64,000 bases of DNA from Candidatus Altiarchaeales archaeon (GTDB taxonomy: Archaea > Altiarchaeota > Altiarchaeia > IMC4 > SCGC-AAA252-I15). The notes under the pieces were generated by a model, which ran no database searches, was not told the origin of the DNA, and worked only from the letters and a program-made list of their open reading frames with translations. The DNA lies in assembly GCA_014727915.1 (NCBI GenBank), contig WJMO01000007.1:33773-97772 (forward strand). The letters run 5' to 3'. Made by a program: the position numbers and the translations under genes. This document shows positions 32,141-40,651 of the stretch, piece by piece (the stretch's first letter is position 1; every line of letters starts with the position of its first letter).

Positions 32141-34459
32141 TCACCCGCCGAATATCATCTTCCGCAGGCGTGCCAGTATGCCCTTCGGCTCCTCCTCCTG
32201 GGTCCGGACAGTGGAGGTGCTGCCTTGCCTGACGCACTCGCACTTGGCTGCTCCGCTGTCGTCCACCATGTAATCACATGTGTAGCCTCTCGGGCAATCT
32301 CCCTCGACGCACGTGTTAGGAGATGCGTACTCTATCGCCTCGCATCGTATCGTCTCCAACGTGGTGGTGGGCGACGTCTCCCTGCACTTGCAGTAGTTCA
32401 CGCCCGCACTGTCGGTCACGACCGTGCATGTGTATCCTGGCGGGCACGCTGCCATCTTGCAGCTTTCTGCCGTGGGGTCTGTCACGTCGCTGCACTTCCT
32501 CCCTGGGACAGTCGAGGGTGGCACTCCCTGGATGCACCTGCAAACTCCCGCAGCTCCTGCCGCCTCCTGGACGTGCTTGCACTTGTGCTGTGGCGGGCAG
32601 AGGCCCTCGACGCACCGGTCATCGGAGGCTGGGTATATGCCCTCGCACTTCATCTGACCTGGCAATGTGGTGGAAGTGGGTGATACGCACCTGCACATGC
32701 CCGAGTCCGCGGAGGTTGCTCCTGGTATGAACCTGCACTTGCTATCCTCCGGGCAGAGGCCTTCGGCGCACTTTTCAGCTGATGCCGGGTATACGCCGTC
32801 GCATTTCACCTGGCCGGGCAGTGTGGTTGTGGTGGGCGTCTCATAGCCTACGCACACGCACTTGGACACCTGGGCGCTGCCGAACGTGTAGGTAATGACC
32901 CTGCACTTCTGTTCCGGCGGGCACAGGGCTGCCTTGCAGGACTCGGGGGTCGCGTAGTCGACGGCCTCGCACTTCTCCTGGGTTGGCAGGGTGGTTGAGG
33001 TTGCTCCCGGCCCTTCAGCGCAGACACAGCCGGAAACCTGGGTGCTGCCGAACGTGTAGGTAATGAGGCTGCAGCTCTGGCCGGGCGGGCATGAGGCTGG
33101 CTTGCAGGTCTCATGTGACGGGTATGCCACATCCTCGCATGGCCCTGGCTCCATCGTTGTTGTCGTCACAGGTATGCACTTGCAGTAGTTCGCATCTGCG
33201 GCGGTCGGGTTGATGACCATCCTGCACTCGTGGCCTGGAGGACATGGGCCCTCCTTGCATCTCGCAGCCGATGCTGGATAGATGGCCTCGCACCTCACCT
33301 GCCCTGGCAGTGTTGTTGTTGTGGTCTCCTTGAGTACGCACTTGCACCTGCCAGCGTTAGCTGCCGACGCCAGTTGGACGTACTTGCACTCGTAGTCCGT
33401 CGGGCACTCGGCTGCTTCGCACCTGTCCGGGGACGGGTACTGCTGGGCCTCGCACCTCCGGGAGGGGATGGTCGTCGTGGGCGTCTCGCAGACGCACCTC
33501 GCGGGTGTCTGCAATGCGGCAAGCGAAGCTGAGGATACGGTTCCCGGCTTGTAGACGCATCTCTGCCCTGGCGGGCATCTTCCACTGCACGTGTTCGGCG
33601 ACGGGCGGTCTATCGCCTCGCACCGTGTTTGTAGGGTGGTGGTCGTTGCCGTGTCGTCAGGTTCGCATGAGCACTTGAGCACGCACGAGTACCCGGGGGG
33701 GCAGTAGCCGCTTAGACAATTAGACCTGGTAGGGGCGTATATCCCAGAACACCTTGTCGTGGCGGGCTGGGTGGTGGTGGTCGCCTGCACGCACTGGCAC
33801 TTCCCCGTGTTGGCTGCCGCAGCCGAGGGCACGTACCTGCATGTGTAGTCTGTGGGGCAGACGCCGACCGCGCACCTGTCGGGGGACGCGTAGGCGAGCG
33901 CCTCGCACCTCTGGGATGAGGGTATTGTAGTGGTTGTGTCGCAAACGCATTTTCCGGCTATGTTGGCTGCCAGGTATCCGGGGGATGTCCCGGCCTTGTA
34001 CACGCAACTGGTCCCGGCGGGGCATACTCCGCTGCAGGTGTTCGGGGTCGGGTTGGAGACGTCCTCGCACCTCCGTAACGTGGAGGTCATTGTAGTGGTT
34101 GTGGTCTCCCTGCATTTGCAGGAGCCGGCATTCGCGGTCGTGACCGAGGGCACGTACGCGCATGTGAGGCCGTCATCGCAGACGCCGACCGCGCATCGTG
34201 CGTCGCTGTTGTACTGGAGACGCTCGCAGGGTGTGCCGGACTGGGTCGTGGTTGTCCGCAGGGTCAGCCCGTCGGGATCATATGCGGTTATGTGAGGCTG
34301 TCTTAGGGTGGTTGTCGTGATCGTTATGTCGGAGACCCTTTTGATGTTGTCTGTGCCCAATGTCGCGGCAGCCGCCAAACCCACAACGAGGAGTAAGATA
34401 AAAGAGACAGTTGCCAGCCTAGATTTTGAAATATGGTTTGCCATAGAAGACAATGACAT
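32141..34459 (-). CDS. Secreted protein with 13 six-Cys modules separated by Thr-rich linkers
   Basis: Signal peptide; repeat C-x10-C-x3/4-C-x5-C-xn-C-x-C counted by hand; amphipathic C-terminus GILARLRKMIFGG. Confidence 0.85.
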   Translation of the reverse strand: MSLSSMANHISKSRLATVSFILLLVVGLAAAATLGTDNIKRVSDITITTTTLRQPHITAYDPDGLTLRTTTTQSGTPCERLQYNSDARCAVGVCDDGLTCAYVPSVTTANAGSCKCRETTTTTMTSTLRRCEDVSNPTPNTCSGVCPAGTSCVYKAGTSPGYLAANIAGKCVCDTTTTIPSSQRCEALAYASPDRCAVGVCPTDYTCRYVPSAAAANTGKCQCVQATTTTQPATTRCSGIYAPTRSNCLSGYCPPGYSCVLKCSCEPDDTATTTTLQTRCEAIDRPSPNTCSGRCPPGQRCVYKPGTVSSASLAALQTPARCVCETPTTTIPSRRCEAQQYPSPDRCEAAECPTDYECKYVQLASAANAGRCKCVLKETTTTTLPGQVRCEAIYPASAARCKEGPCPPGHECRMVINPTAADANYCKCIPVTTTTMEPGPCEDVAYPSHETCKPASCPPGQSCSLITYTFGSTQVSGCVCAEGPGATSTTLPTQEKCEAVDYATPESCKAALCPPEQKCRVITYTFGSAQVSKCVCVGYETPTTTTLPGQVKCDGVYPASAEKCAEGLCPEDSKCRFIPGATSADSGMCRCVSPTSTTLPGQMKCEGIYPASDDRCVEGLCPPQHKCKHVQEAAGAAGVCRCIQGVPPSTVPGRKCSDVTDPTAESCKMAACPPGYTCTVVTDSAGVNYCKCRETSPTTTLETIRCEAIEYASPNTCVEGDCPRGYTCDYMVDDSGAAKCECVRQGSTSTVRTQEEEPKGILARLRKMIFGG

Positions 34460-36557: not shown

Positions 36558-37463
36558 ATGAGCAAGCCAGCCAGGGACATCCGGACCGCGGAGATACTCG
36601 ACCGGGAGGAGATCGCCAGGGCTATGAGAGGTCAAGTCGATGAAAAAGTTGCTGACGTTGGTGTTGACCGTGGTCTGGAGGGCCACATAGTTGCTGTTAA
36701 GCGGTTGAACGACGAGGCTGTCACCAGGTTCAGGGGCTTGGACAGCAGGTTCTACGTGGTCACCGCGGGGCACCCTACTAGGGAACAAAAGGATTTTGGA
36801 TTGGTGAATGGTGAGAGACGGGAAGTGGTAAGGACTGTCGACAGCCCCCATGACCTGATCGTCTTTGATGTTAAGGGCGTGCTGGACGTTCCGAACCGTG
36901 ACCGTGAGGATAACGAGCCTGTGAGGGCTGTCACAGGGGTTGTGTTGGATGGGCAGAGCTGCGCGGTGAAGCACACCTGTCTTGTGCTGGGAGTCGCTCC
37001 AGACGATTTCAAGCTTCCGGGGCCGAGATTATCGGATGATGATGTCGATTCATTAGGCCGTCTGGGAGTATTCCCTCCGAAAAGCAGGGACCTTAACATG
37101 TTAAAGGGGAGGAGGCTTGCTTTTTTGATGTACCGGCATCCGCTGCAGGAGGGCATGCCCGTTGGCTTCTTCAACCAGGATGGTAGCACGGACAGTTTCT
37201 TTGGGAACCTGACAGTTAACGTGAGCCCGGCCATTACGGACGTTGAGGCGAGGGTTGACGTGGGGGCGGATACAAGCACCGTTATGATCAGGAAGGGTGC
37301 TAGGGAGGTTGACAGGAGACTAGAGAGCGTTTTAGCGGGTGATACCAGGAACCCCAACGACATAGCGGGCATATTGGACGACCTCCGGGGGGTTTCAGGA
37401 GAGAGCAGGAGATGGCACAATCAGAGGGAGGTGAGAGACAGCGGGATAATTCCGGGGAGATGA
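36558..37463 (+). CDS. Hypothetical protein
   Basis: 301-aa ORF, no motif recognised. Confidence 0.6.
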   Translation: MSKPARDIRTAEILDREEIARAMRGQVDEKVADVGVDRGLEGHIVAVKRLNDEAVTRFRGLDSRFYVVTAGHPTREQKDFGLVNGERREVVRTVDSPHDLIVFDVKGVLDVPNRDREDNEPVRAVTGVVLDGQSCAVKHTCLVLGVAPDDFKLPGPRLSDDDVDSLGRLGVFPPKSRDLNMLKGRRLAFLMYRHPLQEGMPVGFFNQDGSTDSFFGNLTVNVSPAITDVEARVDVGADTSTVMIRKGAREVDRRLESVLAGDTRNPNDIAGILDDLRGVSGESRRWHNQREVRDSGIIPGR

Positions 37464-37468
37464 TAGTT

Positions 37469-37870
37469 TCATTTGAGTATTGATAGTTTGCAGTTTTCCA
37501 CGCCGCGTATGGCGCTCAGTCCGCCGTAGAGTTCCCGTATCTTTACTGCTTCGCCTTCGACTATCAGGACTTCCACGCATTCTGCGTGTGTTATGTGACT
37601 GTGCATCGTGGATTTGATGCTGGTTTCGTGTTTGTGCTGCAATTCCACCAGTTTCTTGTTCACGTCGGAGACGTGATGGTCGTATAGGTAGGATATCGTT
37701 CCGGTAGCCTTGCCGTTCGACCTGGGACGCTTCTGCGTTATGAATTCGCGCACTGCGTCGGCTATGGCTTTGCTGCGGTTGGAGTAGCCCAGGTCTTCTA
37801 TGAGCCTGTCAAACCTCTCGACCAGCTTGCCGGGGAGGGAGACCCCGAATCGTGTCACCCTGTCAGCCAT
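37469..37870 (-). CDS. nikR: Nickel-responsive regulator NikR
   Basis: RFGVSL ribbon-helix-helix, YSNRSKAI, YDHH, QH, HSH...C Ni site. Confidence 0.95.
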   Translation of the reverse strand: MADRVTRFGVSLPGKLVERFDRLIEDLGYSNRSKAIADAVREFITQKRPRSNGKATGTISYLYDHHVSDVNKKLVELQHKHETSIKSTMHSHITHAECVEVLIVEGEAVKIRELYGGLSAIRGVENCKLSILK

Positions 37871-37895
37871 CCAATGTCACCATGCTTTTATATGT

Positions 37896-37922
37896 GTAAC
37901 ACAAATTTAAAAAGAGTGTTAT
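37896..37922. promoter_or_regulatory. Putative NikR operator GTAACAC-N13-GTGTTAT
   Basis: Perfect TAACAC/GTGTTA inverted repeat flanking TTTAAAA in the divergent intergenic region. Confidence 0.7.
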
Positions 37923-37931
37923 GGTGATTGT

Positions 37932-38222
37932 ATGTGGTTGATTGTCTCGTCTGTGGCGGCTGTTGCGGTGACCGCATTGTGGGCCTTTACTCCGAAGAAG
38001 TACAAGCTGGGCAGCCTTGCCATAATGCTGTGGGGGCTTTCGCTGATGATATTCGTGGATCATGCCCTGGGATATGAGGGAGGTCCGTTCATCGAGATGG
38101 AAACCGACGGACTGATTGAGAGCGGGACAGTATTGGGGATCGCGATGATCATGCCGTTATTTATTATCTGGGAGATCCAACTAGTTATTTCAAAGATGAG
38201 AGGAGAGCTAAATACGAGGTGA
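37932..38222 (+). CDS. Small 3-TM membrane protein, putative Ni-transporter subunit
   Basis: KYKLG...WGLSLMIFVDH. Confidence 0.75.
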   Translation: MWLIVSSVAAVAVTALWAFTPKKYKLGSLAIMLWGLSLMIFVDHALGYEGGPFIEMETDGLIESGTVLGIAMIMPLFIIWEIQLVISKMRGELNTR

Positions 38223-38228
38223 AATAGG

Positions 38229-38564
38229 ATGGCATGTTTTTCAGCACCGTTGGCTGTGGGCATGATAACCACGGCATGCAGGAAGAGGATACCGGAAAAA
38301 TACCATATCGGATGGTTCAACACCCTTGTGCTTGGTGGTTCAGCAGGTCTGCTACTGGAGCACCTGGCAAGCGGGGAGATAGTGCCTTACCCGCCCTTTC
38401 TCACGGCGATGGCAAGCCCCGCCGAGACTGCGGTGATGGTCGCGGAGATAATGTCCATAGGCGTTCCGATGCTCCTCGCATGCGTTGGAGTATGGGGTGC
38501 TATGGTGTTAGCCGCCAACTACTTCGAGCACACGGCAAATTCCAGGGCAGAACACAGGGCGTGA
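38229..38564 (+). CDS. Small membrane protein, putative Ni-transporter subunit
   Basis: MACF N-terminus; KYHIG...GGSAGLLLEH..GEIVPYPPFLTAM. Confidence 0.75.
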   Translation: MACFSAPLAVGMITTACRKRIPEKYHIGWFNTLVLGGSAGLLLEHLASGEIVPYPPFLTAMASPAETAVMVAEIMSIGVPMLLACVGVWGAMVLAANYFEHTANSRAEHRA

Positions 38565-38611: not shown

Positions 38612-38941
38612 TCAGATCCTTTCGAGTATCTGCTTTACCCTTCTGTCTTTTATCCTGTAGAATGCGAGCTTGCCTTTGCCGTAGCTCTCGATTATGTCAT
38701 TGTCCTTAAGTTTGGTCAGGTGTTGGCTGATGTTCGGCTGGCTCTTGCCCATAGCCTCGGATAGGACGCAGACGCAGAGGTCTTTTTCGGACAGTAGGTT
38801 GAGTATCTGGATTCTTGTGGGGTTTGCGAGTACCTTCAGGTAGTCAGCCTTCTCCCTCGCCATCTCAGGTCGGATCATGCGCTTCTTTGCTGGAGAGACC
38901 TCACACTTGCACTTTCGCATCTCCTCTTCGGTGATTGTCAT
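38612..38941 (-). CDS. arsR: ArsR/SmtB-family repressor
   Basis: KVLANPTRIQIL, LCVC alpha3 site, SQPNISQHL. Confidence 0.9.
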   Translation of the reverse strand: MTITEEEMRKCKCEVSPAKKRMIRPEMAREKADYLKVLANPTRIQILNLLSEKDLCVCVLSEAMGKSQPNISQHLTKLKDNDIIESYGKGKLAFYRIKDRRVKQILERI

Positions 38942-38967
38942 GGTAACCACTAGGTTTTTATTATATA

Positions 38968-39005
38968 AATTCATATTATCATATTCGAAATTTATTATAT
39001 GAATT
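38968..39005. promoter_or_regulatory. Putative ArsR operator
   Basis: AATTCATAT-N20-ATATGAATT, with nested TCATAT-N12-ATATGA. Confidence 0.6.
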
Positions 39006-39015
39006 GGTGGTTTTT

Positions 39016-39156
39016 ATGTCGGACGAAAAAAAAGAGGGCTTCCTGACCCGGATATTGGGTAAACTGGATAGGAAGCTGGAGGAGAAGTCAAAGGAAGGCT
39101 GCGGTTGCGAATGTGAATGCAAGGAAAAAGACGATAAGGGGTCGTGCTGCGAATGA
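39016..39156 (+). CDS. 46-aa Cys-rich putative metal(loid)-binding peptide
   Basis: MSDEKKEGFLTRILGKLDRKLEEKSKEGCGCECECKEKDDKGSCCE; ATGA overlap with the permease. Confidence 0.75.
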   Translation: MSDEKKEGFLTRILGKLDRKLEEKSKEGCGCECECKEKDDKGSCCE

Positions 39157-40097
39157 TAGAAGAGGCTGTCAACGTACTGGTATACGATATTGGGGGATTG
39201 GAAGCCCAGTCAACATTGGGGGAGACCGTGCACTTCTTCATCTACGACAGCGTGAAGATATTGCTACTGCTCTACTTCATGATAGCATTCATCGGAGTGT
39301 TCAGAACGTTCATATCCCCGTCGAGGATACGGGATTGGATGACCACCCAAACCCACGGATTAAGCTATGTGGCAGCCTCGCTCCTGGGGATCTTGACCCC
39401 TTTCTGCTCCTGCTCTTCGATCCCGATCTTCATGAGCTTCATAAAGGCCGGAGTACCCCTTGGACCCTCCTTCTCCTTCCTAGTGACCTCCCCCTTGATA
39501 AACGAGTACCTTGTCGTTTTGATGGTGGGGTTCTTCGGGTTGAGGATAACCGGGATGTACATCCTGTTCGGGATGGTCTTGGGCGTTTCAGCCGGTATGC
39601 TGGCAGGCAGACTGAACCTCGAGAAGTACATCGTGGAGGATATCAGAGGCGACAGAGACTTGGATGAGAAGAAGTACCAGGGCGTAGGAGAGAGGATTTC
39701 ATACGGAATGGAGGAGGCATCCTCCATCGTCAGGAAGCTGTGGATGTGGGTGCTGTTAGGCGTTGGGGTGGGCGCCGTGATACACGGTTACGTTCCCGAG
39801 GAGATGATCCACAACGTCCTGGAGAGGACGGGGGTGTTCTCCGTGCCCTTTGCCACGGTCGTGGGAGTGCCCATATACGCCAACTGCAGCGCGGTCGTCC
39901 CAGTAGCCGTTGTACTGTTCCAGAAGGGCGTTCCATTGGGGACGGCCCTCGCCTTCATGATGGCCACCGCAGCCCTAAGCCTTCCGGAAGCTGTGATACT
40001 CAGGAGGGTGATGAAGCTGCCGCTCATCGCGGTCTTCTTCACGATGGTGGCGGCGGGGATAATGCTAATAGGATACCTGTTCAATTTCATACAGTGA
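39153..40097 (+). CDS. ArsP/DUF318-family permease
   Basis: TPFCSCSSIP, SPLIN, GVPIY, ALSLPE. Confidence 0.92.
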   Translation: MIEEAVNVLVYDIGGLEAQSTLGETVHFFIYDSVKILLLLYFMIAFIGVFRTFISPSRIRDWMTTQTHGLSYVAASLLGILTPFCSCSSIPIFMSFIKAGVPLGPSFSFLVTSPLINEYLVVLMVGFFGLRITGMYILFGMVLGVSAGMLAGRLNLEKYIVEDIRGDRDLDEKKYQGVGERISYGMEEASSIVRKLWMWVLLGVGVGAVIHGYVPEEMIHNVLERTGVFSVPFATVVGVPIYANCSAVVPVAVVLFQKGVPLGTALAFMMATAALSLPEAVILRRVMKLPLIAVFFTMVAAGIMLIGYLFNFIQ

Positions 40098-40099
40098 AG

Positions 40100-40651
40100 A
40101 TGGCTGCCGACTTCATAGCACCGTTCATCGCCGTTGGTCTGGCAGAGTTGGGAGACAAGACCCAGTTGGCTCTGATACTGCTCTCCACCAGGACCAAAAG
40201 GCGGGTTCTACTGCTATCAGGTGCTGTGCTAGGGTTCCTCCTGGTTGATGGGGTCGCGGTGGCTGCCGGCTCATGGGTTGGCGACGCCCTCCCGAGGGAT
40301 GTTGTGAAAGCAGCGGCGGGGCTTGCGTTCATCCTATTCGGGGCGGTGATGTTGATGTCCGGTGGAGAGAACGACAGGGAGAGGATAAGGCCAGGGAACC
40401 CGTTCATTTCCTCATTCCTGCTGATCTCATTGACCGAGTTCGGAGACAAGACCCAGATAGCAGCCGGACTGTTCGCCGCACGATATAATCCCCTGATGGT
40501 GCTGGCGGGCGCGATGGCATCGTTGACGCTGCTGTCAGCAGCTGCCATAGCGTTGGGGAGCGGGCTATCTGCCAGGGTTAACCCCGAGAAGGCCAGCAGG
40601 ATAGCAGGAATGACATTCATCATCATAGGCGTTGGAACCGTCATCATCTGA
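40100..40651 (+). CDS. TMEM165/GDT1 (UPF0016) Ca/Mn exporter
   Basis: Two ExGDKTQ motifs; true start MAADF at 40100. Confidence 0.93.
   Translation: MAADFIAPFIAVGLAELGDKTQLALILLSTRTKRRVLLLSGAVLGFLLVDGVAVAAGSWVGDALPRDVVKAAAGLAFILFGAVMLMSGGENDRERIRPGNPFISSFLLISLTEFGDKTQIAAGLFAARYNPLMVLAGAMASLTLLSAAAIALGSGLSARVNPEKASRIAGMTFIIIGVGTVII

Follow-up and report, generated by a model that had tools for sequence, protein, structure and literature searches.

A candidate NikR-controlled two-subunit nickel permease of an undescribed family in an Altiarchaeales archaeon

Results

A pair of small membrane proteins divergent from nikR

The window, a stretch of 64,000 nucleotides from Candidatus Altiarchaeales archaeon (contig WJMO01000007.1, positions 33,773 to 97,772 of the forward strand), contains a nikR gene that is divergent from two genes encoding membrane proteins of 96 and 111 amino acids (aa), here called A and B. 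This arrangement had been described in an initial annotation made from the letters alone, and all of its elements were found in place (Table 1). We favour, with moderate confidence, the reading that A and B are the two subunits of a permease for nickel uptake, repressed by NikR and belonging to an undescribed family. Nickel importers controlled by NikR are a well-known kind of system; the family and its architecture are the new part. The computed grounds for this reading are the paralogy of A and B, their conserved pairing and fusion, a nickel-linked neighbourhood, conservation of the operator and a distribution complementary to that of NikM. The nikR product itself exceeds the cut-off of the NCBIfam model NF003381 NikR (E 5.8e-39, 133.4 bits, cut-off 105) and displays in Pfam an N-terminal DNA-binding RHH_1 domain (E 8.1e-07) together with a C-terminal nickel-binding NikR_C domain (E 6.4e-27), the ribbon-helix-helix and NikR_C combination by which the protein is assigned to NikR.

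Near-length relatives of A (102) and of B (51) come mostly from Altiarchaeota and Thermoplasmata assemblies, and none is functionally named. A pattern scan with one genome per species found a relative in 132 genomes, the best 80 loci of which were analysed; these and the window make up the 81 loci counted below. Among the best 80 of 132, archaeal carriers belong to Altiarchaeota, Thermoplasmatota including Methanomassiliicoccales, Iainarchaeota, Aenigmatarchaeota, Hadarchaeota and Freyarchaeota, and bacterial carriers to Omnitrophota, Patescibacteria, WOR-3, Planctomycetes and Chloroflexota. A adjoins B in 79 of the 80 loci, the sole exception ending at a contig edge; of the 81 loci, 68 have A before B and 13 have B before A. 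Adjacency was seen again in 78 of 80 loci of a second, independent scan, and natural B-A fusions occur (both described below); these patterns support the earlier proposal that two subunits act together.

A nikR gene was found in 47 of the 81 loci, divergent from the pair and adjacent to it in 28, upstream on the same strand in 11, downstream in 6 and otherwise placed in 2. By clustering it is the sole widely conserved neighbour (45/81, the next group reaching 9), and its linkage to the pair crosses phyla and both domains of life. The 11 loci with nikR upstream on the same strand are bacterial and have one gene between nikR and A-B, which, where annotated, encodes an OprB-type porin or a Phenol_MetA_deg beta-barrel; in all, outer-membrane genes accompany the pair in 12 bacterial loci, 8 of the OprB type and 4 of the Phenol_MetA_deg type. 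The neighbour groups over the 81 loci are ABC ATPase (9, going with ABC-3 permeases of the ZnuB type), OprB-type porin (8), DUF134 (6), LarC nickel-insertion protein (5), deoxyhypusine synthase (5) and, more rarely, ZIP (4), outer-membrane beta-barrel (4), HypF (3), FeoB (3) and ABC-3 permease (3). CbiQ and CbiO are absent from the neighbour groups common to 3 or more of the 81 loci.

A NikR operator is predicted over the core promoters

The region between nikR and A carries GTAACAC-N13-GTGTTAT, which agrees at 13 of 14 bases with the reversed NikR signal GTAACAC-[N13/14]-GTGTTAC, derived by Rodionov 2004 for nickel transporter operons of delta-proteobacteria (PMC545781). With inverted half-sites, a 13-14-base spacing and a place in the promoter of putative nickel genes, the site has the attributes of a NikR operator and is predicted to be one. 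It is the sole TAACAC-N13-GTGTTA in the 1,808,974-base genome of the window, and also the sole box with one mismatch or fewer. The stretch TTTTATAT lies directly 5' of the operator and the GGTGAT ribosome-binding site of A directly 3' of it; since the site stands between these two elements and its 13-base spacer AAATTTAAAAAGA is A/T-rich, it overlaps the core promoters of the A-B operon and of nikR. The palindrome had initially been placed astride the TATA box. The palindrome and its overlap with the core promoter are upheld, and the overlap holds whichever A/T stretch is the TATA box; we infer the assignment of a TATA box to either gene.

Conservation of the box was assessed in the 81 loci. 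Reversed boxes with 2 mismatches or fewer number 23 in the 36,070 nt upstream of the pair (23/81 loci) and 5 in the remaining 613,786 nt, 3 of these 5 adjoining nikR, so that boxes are enriched about 79-fold upstream of the pair. Shuffling the upstream windows 100 times gave, on average, 0.14 loci with a site and never more than 2, as compared with the 23 observed. This enrichment, together with the shuffle result, makes the operator more than chance. In either orientation, at 2 mismatches or fewer, the box occurs in 33 of the 81 loci; it is present in 30 of the 47 nikR-bearing loci and in 3 of the other 34. Among the 11 bacterial loci with nikR upstream, 7 have a box in the forward orientation, such as a perfect GTGTTAC-N13-GTAACAC, no more than 200 nt before nikR, and in the bacterial examples inspected the forward box lies 3' of a TTGACA, at -10 distance.

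Related genomes place the same half-sites before a known type of nickel importer. In a relative of the same order, a perfect GTAACAC-N13-GTGTTAC stands 47-73 nt upstream of nikM (L168:2518-2544), the product of which starts MHIPDGF, and a PDGLE (NikN-type) gene comes next. In a relative of the same family, nikR is divergent from nikM-PDGLE, with GTGTTAC-N17-GTAACAC in between (L169:1709-1739). Since nikM-PDGLE sits behind NikR boxes in these relatives, the nikR-controlled slot of the lineage holds either nikMN or the A-B pair. Besides, the half-sites before the nikM-PDGLE operons are the same and their layouts differ within one phylum (reversed N13 versus forward N17), which indicates that the arrangement of NikR half-sites varies within one lineage. 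Altogether, nikR in 47 and a box in 33 of the 81 loci, the match to the published signal and the box before nikM in a relative support the control by NikR that had been proposed for the pair from the window.

Nickel use and known importers in carrier genomes

The window genome (90.6% complete) encodes two [NiFe] hydrogenase large subunits, and profile searches of this 90.6% complete assembly found no CbiM, NicO, HupE/UreJ, SBP_bac_5 or CdhC; it thus appears to be a nickel user without a known importer. Zhang 2009 (PMC2667541) reports, from comparative genomics, organisms that have nickel enzymes and no recognisable importer, and names Nik/CbiMNQO, NikABCDE and NiCoT as the exclusive set of nickel transporters found in archaea. 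A survey of carrier genomes covered 50 of the 80 loci and was picked before any result; the assemblies are incomplete, and absence from a single genome is unproven. A hydrogenase match was found in 48 of these 50 genomes, CbiM in 4, CbiQ/EcfT in 16 and NicO over its cut-off in none.

Across 61 genomes of the phylum, the B profile matched in 21 (18 strongly), CbiM in 15 (12 strongly), NikR_C in 47 and NicO in none. Hydrogenase was present at E 1e-10 or better in 32 of them; in this set the pair is strong in 16 (weak in 2 more) and CbiM is strong in 8 (with one further fragment), the two being strong together in no genome and one carrier having a sub-threshold CbiM fragment. The 29 phylum genomes without a hydrogenase match have the pair in 2 cases and CbiM in 4. 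The single genus g18 includes one species with the pair and two with CbiM. Judged by these matches, the pair and NikM appear to have a complementary distribution in the phylum. Methanomassiliicoccales were not taken for a replicate of this comparison because their CbiM may serve cobalt.

A distant branch adjoins lar genes

An exhaustive profile search with the merged A+B alignment returned 448 clusters at E 0.001 or better, 215 of them at 1e-10 or better; the 68 longer members among the best 150 clusters gave no Pfam match over cut-off. One subfamily, B2, is distinguished by the motif EH-x-WHGE and a longer inner loop. A metagenome scan for B2 found 581 relatives, of which 80 loci (L088-L167) were analysed; gut and fermenter samples account for many of these, and a Clostridiales-1 RNA was found at one locus. 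An A-like partner comes after B2 in 78 of the 80. These B2 pairs form 45 distinct groups, 32 of them with at least 1 kb of downstream DNA, and 11 of the 32 groups have, next to the pair and in its orientation, larB (AIR carboxylase-like), larC (Ni_insertion) and/or larE (PP-loop). The lar genes are 3' of the pair in 10 of these 11 groups, with gaps of 2 to about 900 nt, and L109:3992-7286 and L126:3983-7605 are apparent operons with larB, larE and larC. These three lar genes make the nickel-pincer cofactor, and the linkage suggests that the B2 branch may supply nickel for it. In one gut-metagenome group, the B2-A pair is immediately preceded, in the same orientation, by a 143-aa open reading frame (ORF) with no Pfam match (L120:3552-3983, +; 10 other loci are similar).

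This lar-operon linkage, the LarC and HypF neighbours, the [NiFe] hydrogenase in 48 of 50 carriers and the exclusion of NikM in the phylum together support the nickel function that had been proposed from the window.

A and B are three-helix paralogues without described relatives

Compared as single sequences, A and B are weakly alike (BLASTP E 0.002, 26% over 61 residues); their family profiles align with an hhalign probability of 96.7% (E 3.6e-10, 81 columns), and this profile-profile alignment identifies them as paralogues. The shared core motif is KY[KH][LI]G-x7-G-x-S-x5-[DE]H. A motif of this kind had been read from the window and is real, with a spacing of x7 in place of the x8 first given. 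Family alignments show conservation of D43-H44, Y48-E49-G50-G51, E55, G60, P75 and W80 in A, and of the N-terminal M-A-C-F, W29, G36-G37, E44-H45, E50, P56-F57-L58, E73 and W89 in B. Two further features initially pointed out were recovered as well, namely an acidic-His pair at the end of a transmembrane helix in both proteins (D43-H44 in A and E44-H45 in B, at the outer end of helix 2) and the MAC start of one of them, which is B, where Cys3 is at least 90% conserved.

Judged by the hydropathy and charge of their families, A and B are predicted to share one topology, with the N-terminus outside and the C-terminus inside. The first loop is inside and K/R-rich (2.9 and 4.0 K+R per sequence in the two families), and the second is outside and acidic (5.0 and 4.2 D+E per sequence). 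It follows from this predicted topology that the [D/E]H pair would lie at the outer end of helix 2 and that the conserved M-A-C-F of B would face outward. The AlphaFold model of B has helices at 2-16, 28-47 and 64-105, with a predicted local distance difference test (pLDDT) value of 68.5. Nine of the proteins retrieved are natural B-A fusions of 179-233 aa, eight from the exhaustive profile search and one from the B relatives; a word search had scored no longer or fused form. The fusions are without the first helix of A. With the C-terminus of B and the first loop of A both on the inner side, the predicted topology calls for exactly this loss, which supports both the topology and direct B-A assembly. 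One fusion, modelled by AlphaFold from the nine-sequence alignment, gave a single helical bundle (pLDDT 79.3, predicted template modelling score 0.72). Prediction of the A + B complex from their family alignments scored 0.13, below the mark of 0.32, and counts neither for nor against assembly.

Searches for described relatives were carried out at several levels. A and B gave nothing in Pfam or NCBIfam at E up to 1, the same being true of 30 family members in Pfam, and a PDB profile search gave nothing better than E 2. With the B-A fusion model, Foldseek found no PDB entry at E 0.001 or better (best E 1.1), and the best VIA-align Z was 6.6, to receptor-like helix bundles, in a range common for helical models. 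An absent fold match of a model neither proves nor disproves a new fold. The nearest clusters in the Protein Atlas were all 'hypothetical' and its named clusters gave no usable match; the full-text literature searched, which excluded subscription-only papers, does not describe the family. In agreement with the earlier view of the proteins as undescribed, the protein family and its 3+3-helix two-gene architecture are undescribed in Pfam (2025 copy), NCBIfam (June 2026) and PDB.

Comparison with known nickel transporters

The initial annotation had also stated that the proteins do not resemble NikABCDE, NikMNQO, NiCoT or HupE/UreJ, and by the features used to assign members to these four families A-B belongs to none of them. 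The nearest functional parallel is with NikMNQO/CbiMNQO. In relatives of this organism the two share the regulatory slot divergent from nikR and the GTAACAC/GTGTTAC box, and, with Lar(MN)QO included, they keep the same company of nikR and hydrogenase users, lar genes standing beside the distant branch. They are mutually exclusive in the phylum. NikM/CbiM binds metal through its N-terminus, and the extreme N-terminus of B is likewise strictly conserved and predicted to be outward, although the conserved residue is a cysteine in B (M-A-C) and a histidine in NikM (M-H). In contrast with the 7-helix NikM and its small partner, A-B consists of two 3-helix proteins; it is not linked to CbiQ/CbiO, and most carriers are without CbiQ. 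CbiM (PF01891), CbiN (PF02553) and PDGLE (PF13190) have no match at E up to 1 in A, B or 30 family members, and none at E up to 0.01 in 68 distant members. As a member of NikMNQO/CbiMNQO, which depends on an energy-coupling factor (ECF) module, the pair was rejected, CbiQ being found in just 16 of 50 carrier genomes (incomplete assemblies).

A review (PMC7689651) gives two signatures that bind metal within a helix and end in D-H: (R/K)HAXDADH(I/L) in transmembrane helix 2 of NiCoT, and HPXXGXDH in helix 1 of HupE/UreJ. By analogy, the D-H/E-H theme of A and B fits as an echo of both. Like NiCoT (HoxN/NixA/NhlF), A-B is probably ATP-independent; the pair has D-H/E-H at the end of helix 2, and NiCoT genes also stand under NikR or beside hydrogenase genes. 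NiCoT is, however, one chain of 6-8 helices with four signature motifs, as against three helices each in A and B, and the pair shares with it the D-H dipeptide alone (E-H in B), the full HX4DH being absent. A NiCoT assignment was discarded, as A, B and the family members have no PF03824 match and lack the signature. With HupE/UreJ the pair has in common about six helices in total and a motif ending in D-H; HupE/UreJ genes adjoin hydrogenase and urease genes, and the protein differs in being a single chain with its signature in helix 1. That assignment, too, was set aside, with no PF04955 match and with HPXXGXDH absent from the A and B family alignments, as was a NikABCDE-type importer, since A and B are small membrane proteins and the window genome has no SBP_bac_5.

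In their genetics A and B recall the paired small multidrug resistance proteins, which are tandem-encoded small membrane transporters: both are pairs of paralogues of about 100 residues, always adjacent and presumed to form a joint working unit. A-B differs from them: Pfam shows no match to that family at E up to 1, each subunit has three helices and the two are oriented in parallel, and the predicted substrate is a metal cation imported, not a drug exported.

Proposed mechanism

Each subunit would cross the membrane three times, with its N-terminus outside. An outward Ni(II) site would be formed from both subunits by D43-H44 of A, by E44-H45 and E50 of B and by the free (M)-A-C N-terminus of B, possibly helped by the acidic outer loops that follow the [D/E]H pairs. 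From there the path of Ni(II) would lie between the two halves of three helices each, with the membrane potential or protons, not ATP, as the driving force. When nickel is plentiful, nickel-bound NikR would sit on GTAACAC-N13-GTGTTAT and, since this site overlaps the promoters of both A-B and nikR, uptake and the repressor itself would be turned down together. The binding-site residues, the direction of transport, the energy coupling, the metal selectivity and the repression are those parts of the mechanism that we infer from patterns in the sequence.

Discussion

Several observations weigh against the permease reading. As many as 34 of the 81 loci are without nikR in the DNA examined, and just 3 of these 34 have the box; in the B2 branch, phmmer with the NikR of the window found nikR in 0 of 80 loci, and a CsoR/RcnR-type repressor, of a kind that usually controls efflux, stands beside the pair in 3 loci (2 distinct groups). 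Five to six helices are few for a transporter, and no solved fold matched the fusion model. Elsewhere in the window genome, a ZIP-family transporter gene (L086:400-1266, -) is divergent from another NikR-like gene of weaker match (127 aa, NikR_C E 4.2e-12, L086:1339-1722, +); this transporter may be a further metal importer under NikR-family control and an additional nickel route. The same genome has a CbiQ/EcfT gene beside a gene for a 435-aa protein with two ABC ATPase domains (L087:3-2160, -); no substrate-capture component adjoins this locus, which looks like a shared ECF energising module. Some hydrogenase (PF00374) matches reach no further than profile position 69; these may represent related subunits without nickel. 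Among the 32 hydrogenase-bearing phylum genomes, 5 are without the pair and without CbiM, so that other routes exist or assemblies are incomplete. In the order of an Omnitrophota carrier the pair was found in 1 of 121 sampled genomes, the carrier itself, a rarity that points to sporadic transfer and makes a contingency table impossible there. Finally, related genomes are not independent samples; for this reason, and because assemblies are incomplete, no P value is given.

The pair might be related to nickel without being an importer, as an efflux or tolerance device, a membrane store or chaperone for hydrogenase or LarC, or a sensor partner of NikR. The nickel context links the pair to nickel and gives no direction, the CsoR/RcnR-type regulator of the three distant-branch loci is typical of efflux control, and such very small proteins have no transporter-like fold match. 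This is unlikely given the position of the NikR box over the core promoter in archaea, or at -10 distance from TTGACA in the bacterial examples, a repressor layout which is that of uptake genes (PMC545781). The same box precedes nikM in a relative, and the pair excludes the importer NikM in hydrogenase-bearing genomes. Outer-membrane porin or beta-barrel genes go with the pair in 12 bacterial loci, and riboswitch searches in 29 loci without nikR gave no NiCo riboswitch. In the distant branch the pair precedes lar genes, and in Lactiplantibacillus it is the importer Lar(MN)QO that accompanies lar genes.

We think it less likely again that the pair handles another cation (cobalt, zinc, iron or manganese) or a non-metal, with a NikR link that is partial or secondary. 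ZIP (4 loci), FeoB (3) and ABC-3 metal permeases (3) among the neighbours, the 34 loci without nikR and the mixed metal island of the window, with arsR, an ArsP-type permease and GDT1, would suit it, and known nickel importers often take cobalt too (PMC7689651). Nickel is favoured, in contrast, by nikR as the sole widely conserved neighbour (45/81 by clustering, the next group 9), by the nickel-specific character of the additional contexts (LarB/C/E, LarC, HypF), and by the riboswitch searches, which gave no B12 or other riboswitch in the 29 loci, solely tRNAs and two unrelated small RNAs.

Least probable is that A+B is a split S component, as the initial annotation had offered as one option, or a NikN/NikL/CbiN-like accessory, dependent on an ECF module (EcfT/CbiQ and ATPases) encoded elsewhere: the CbiQ-family gene and fused double ABC ATPase of the window genome with no S component adjoining, the conserved extreme N-terminus recalling NikM/CbiM and the likewise small size of CbiN-type partners are in its favour, yet it is disfavoured because CbiQ/EcfT is found in just 16 of 50 (incomplete) carrier genomes, and also by the lack of CbiQ/CbiO from neighbour groups common to 3 or more of 81 loci, by the Pfam search, in which at E up to 1 no member matched CbiM, CbiN or PDGLE, and by a topology of 3+3 helices as against 2 for CbiN (size and helix number of CbiN from PMC7689651).

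Beyond a NikR-repressed permease, a bolder joint claim can be put forward tentatively, at somewhat short of an even chance. A-B would then be a new transporter family and the smallest known dedicated transition-metal importer, an ATP-free 3+3-helix heterodimer (5 helices if fused). It would capture Ni(II) outside with the D-H/E-H pairs and, in a site resembling a nickel hook, with the Cys3 thiolate of B and the free N-terminus of that subunit. NikMNQO would have been displaced repeatedly, both from the slot under nikR control and next to lar genes. Its range would extend from Altiarchaeota, Thermoplasmatota and DPANN archaea to Omnitrophota, Patescibacteria and gut Clostridiales.

If A-B is indeed a nickel importer, the pair would fill a missing-importer gap for many uncultured anaerobes, in Altiarchaeota, Methanomassiliicoccales and other Thermoplasmatota, Iainarchaeota, Aenigmatarchaeota, Hadarchaeota, Patescibacteria and Omnitrophota, with a related branch in gut and fermenter bacteria making the nickel-pincer cofactor. 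The metal transporters would gain a new and very small architecture, and metabolic reconstruction of hydrogen-metabolising lineages would improve. Heterologous production of hydrogenase, urease or LarA-type enzymes could also draw on the two genes as a compact module for nickel uptake.

Features of the window around the pair

Table 1. Features of the nikR and A-B locus and of its surroundings (positions in the window)
Feature	Position	Strand	Remarks
nikR	37469-37870	-	133 aa; nickel-responsive ribbon-helix-helix repressor; NCBIfam and Pfam domains
Divergent intergenic promoter region	37871-37931	.	61 bases; common to nikR and the A-B operon; putative promoter roles
A/T stretch TTTTATAT	37886-37893		directly 5' of the operator
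Predicted NikR operator GTAACAC-N13-GTGTTAT	37896-37922	.	published-signal match, genome uniqueness, conservation
Core palindrome TAACAC-N13-GTGTTA	37897-37921		within the predicted operator
Ribosome-binding site of A, GGTGAT	37923-37928		directly 3' of the operator
Subunit A (ORF A)	37932-38222	+	96 aa; three predicted helices, N-terminus out, C-terminus in
Ribosome-binding site of B, GAGGTGA	38216-38222		overlaps the stop codon of A
Subunit B (ORF B)	38229-38564	+	111 aa; three predicted helices, N-terminus out, C-terminus in
Mixed metal-homeostasis cluster	38612-40651		3' of B
ArsR/SmtB-type regulator gene	38612-38974	-	in the metal cluster
Cysteine-rich ORF	39004-39156	+	50 aa; in the metal cluster; no Pfam match
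ArsP_1-family permease gene	39144-40097	+	weakly like SaoE and Cu/Zn efflux proteins
GDT1/UPF0016 cation/proton antiporter gene	within 39740-40651	+	in the metal cluster
ORF adjoining the nikR 3' end	36558-37463	+	301 aa; no Pfam/NCBIfam match at E up to 1
Cysteine-module ORF	32141-34459	-	772 aa; no Pfam match at E 0.001 or better

On the other side of nikR from the pair, the 301-aa ORF is overlapped on the opposite strand by a 222-aa ORF, giving two candidate genes there. Further away, the 772-aa ORF consists of threonine-rich linkers and repeated cysteine modules of the C-x-x-x-C-P-P-G type, has an N-terminal hydrophobic segment and looks like a repetitive surface protein.

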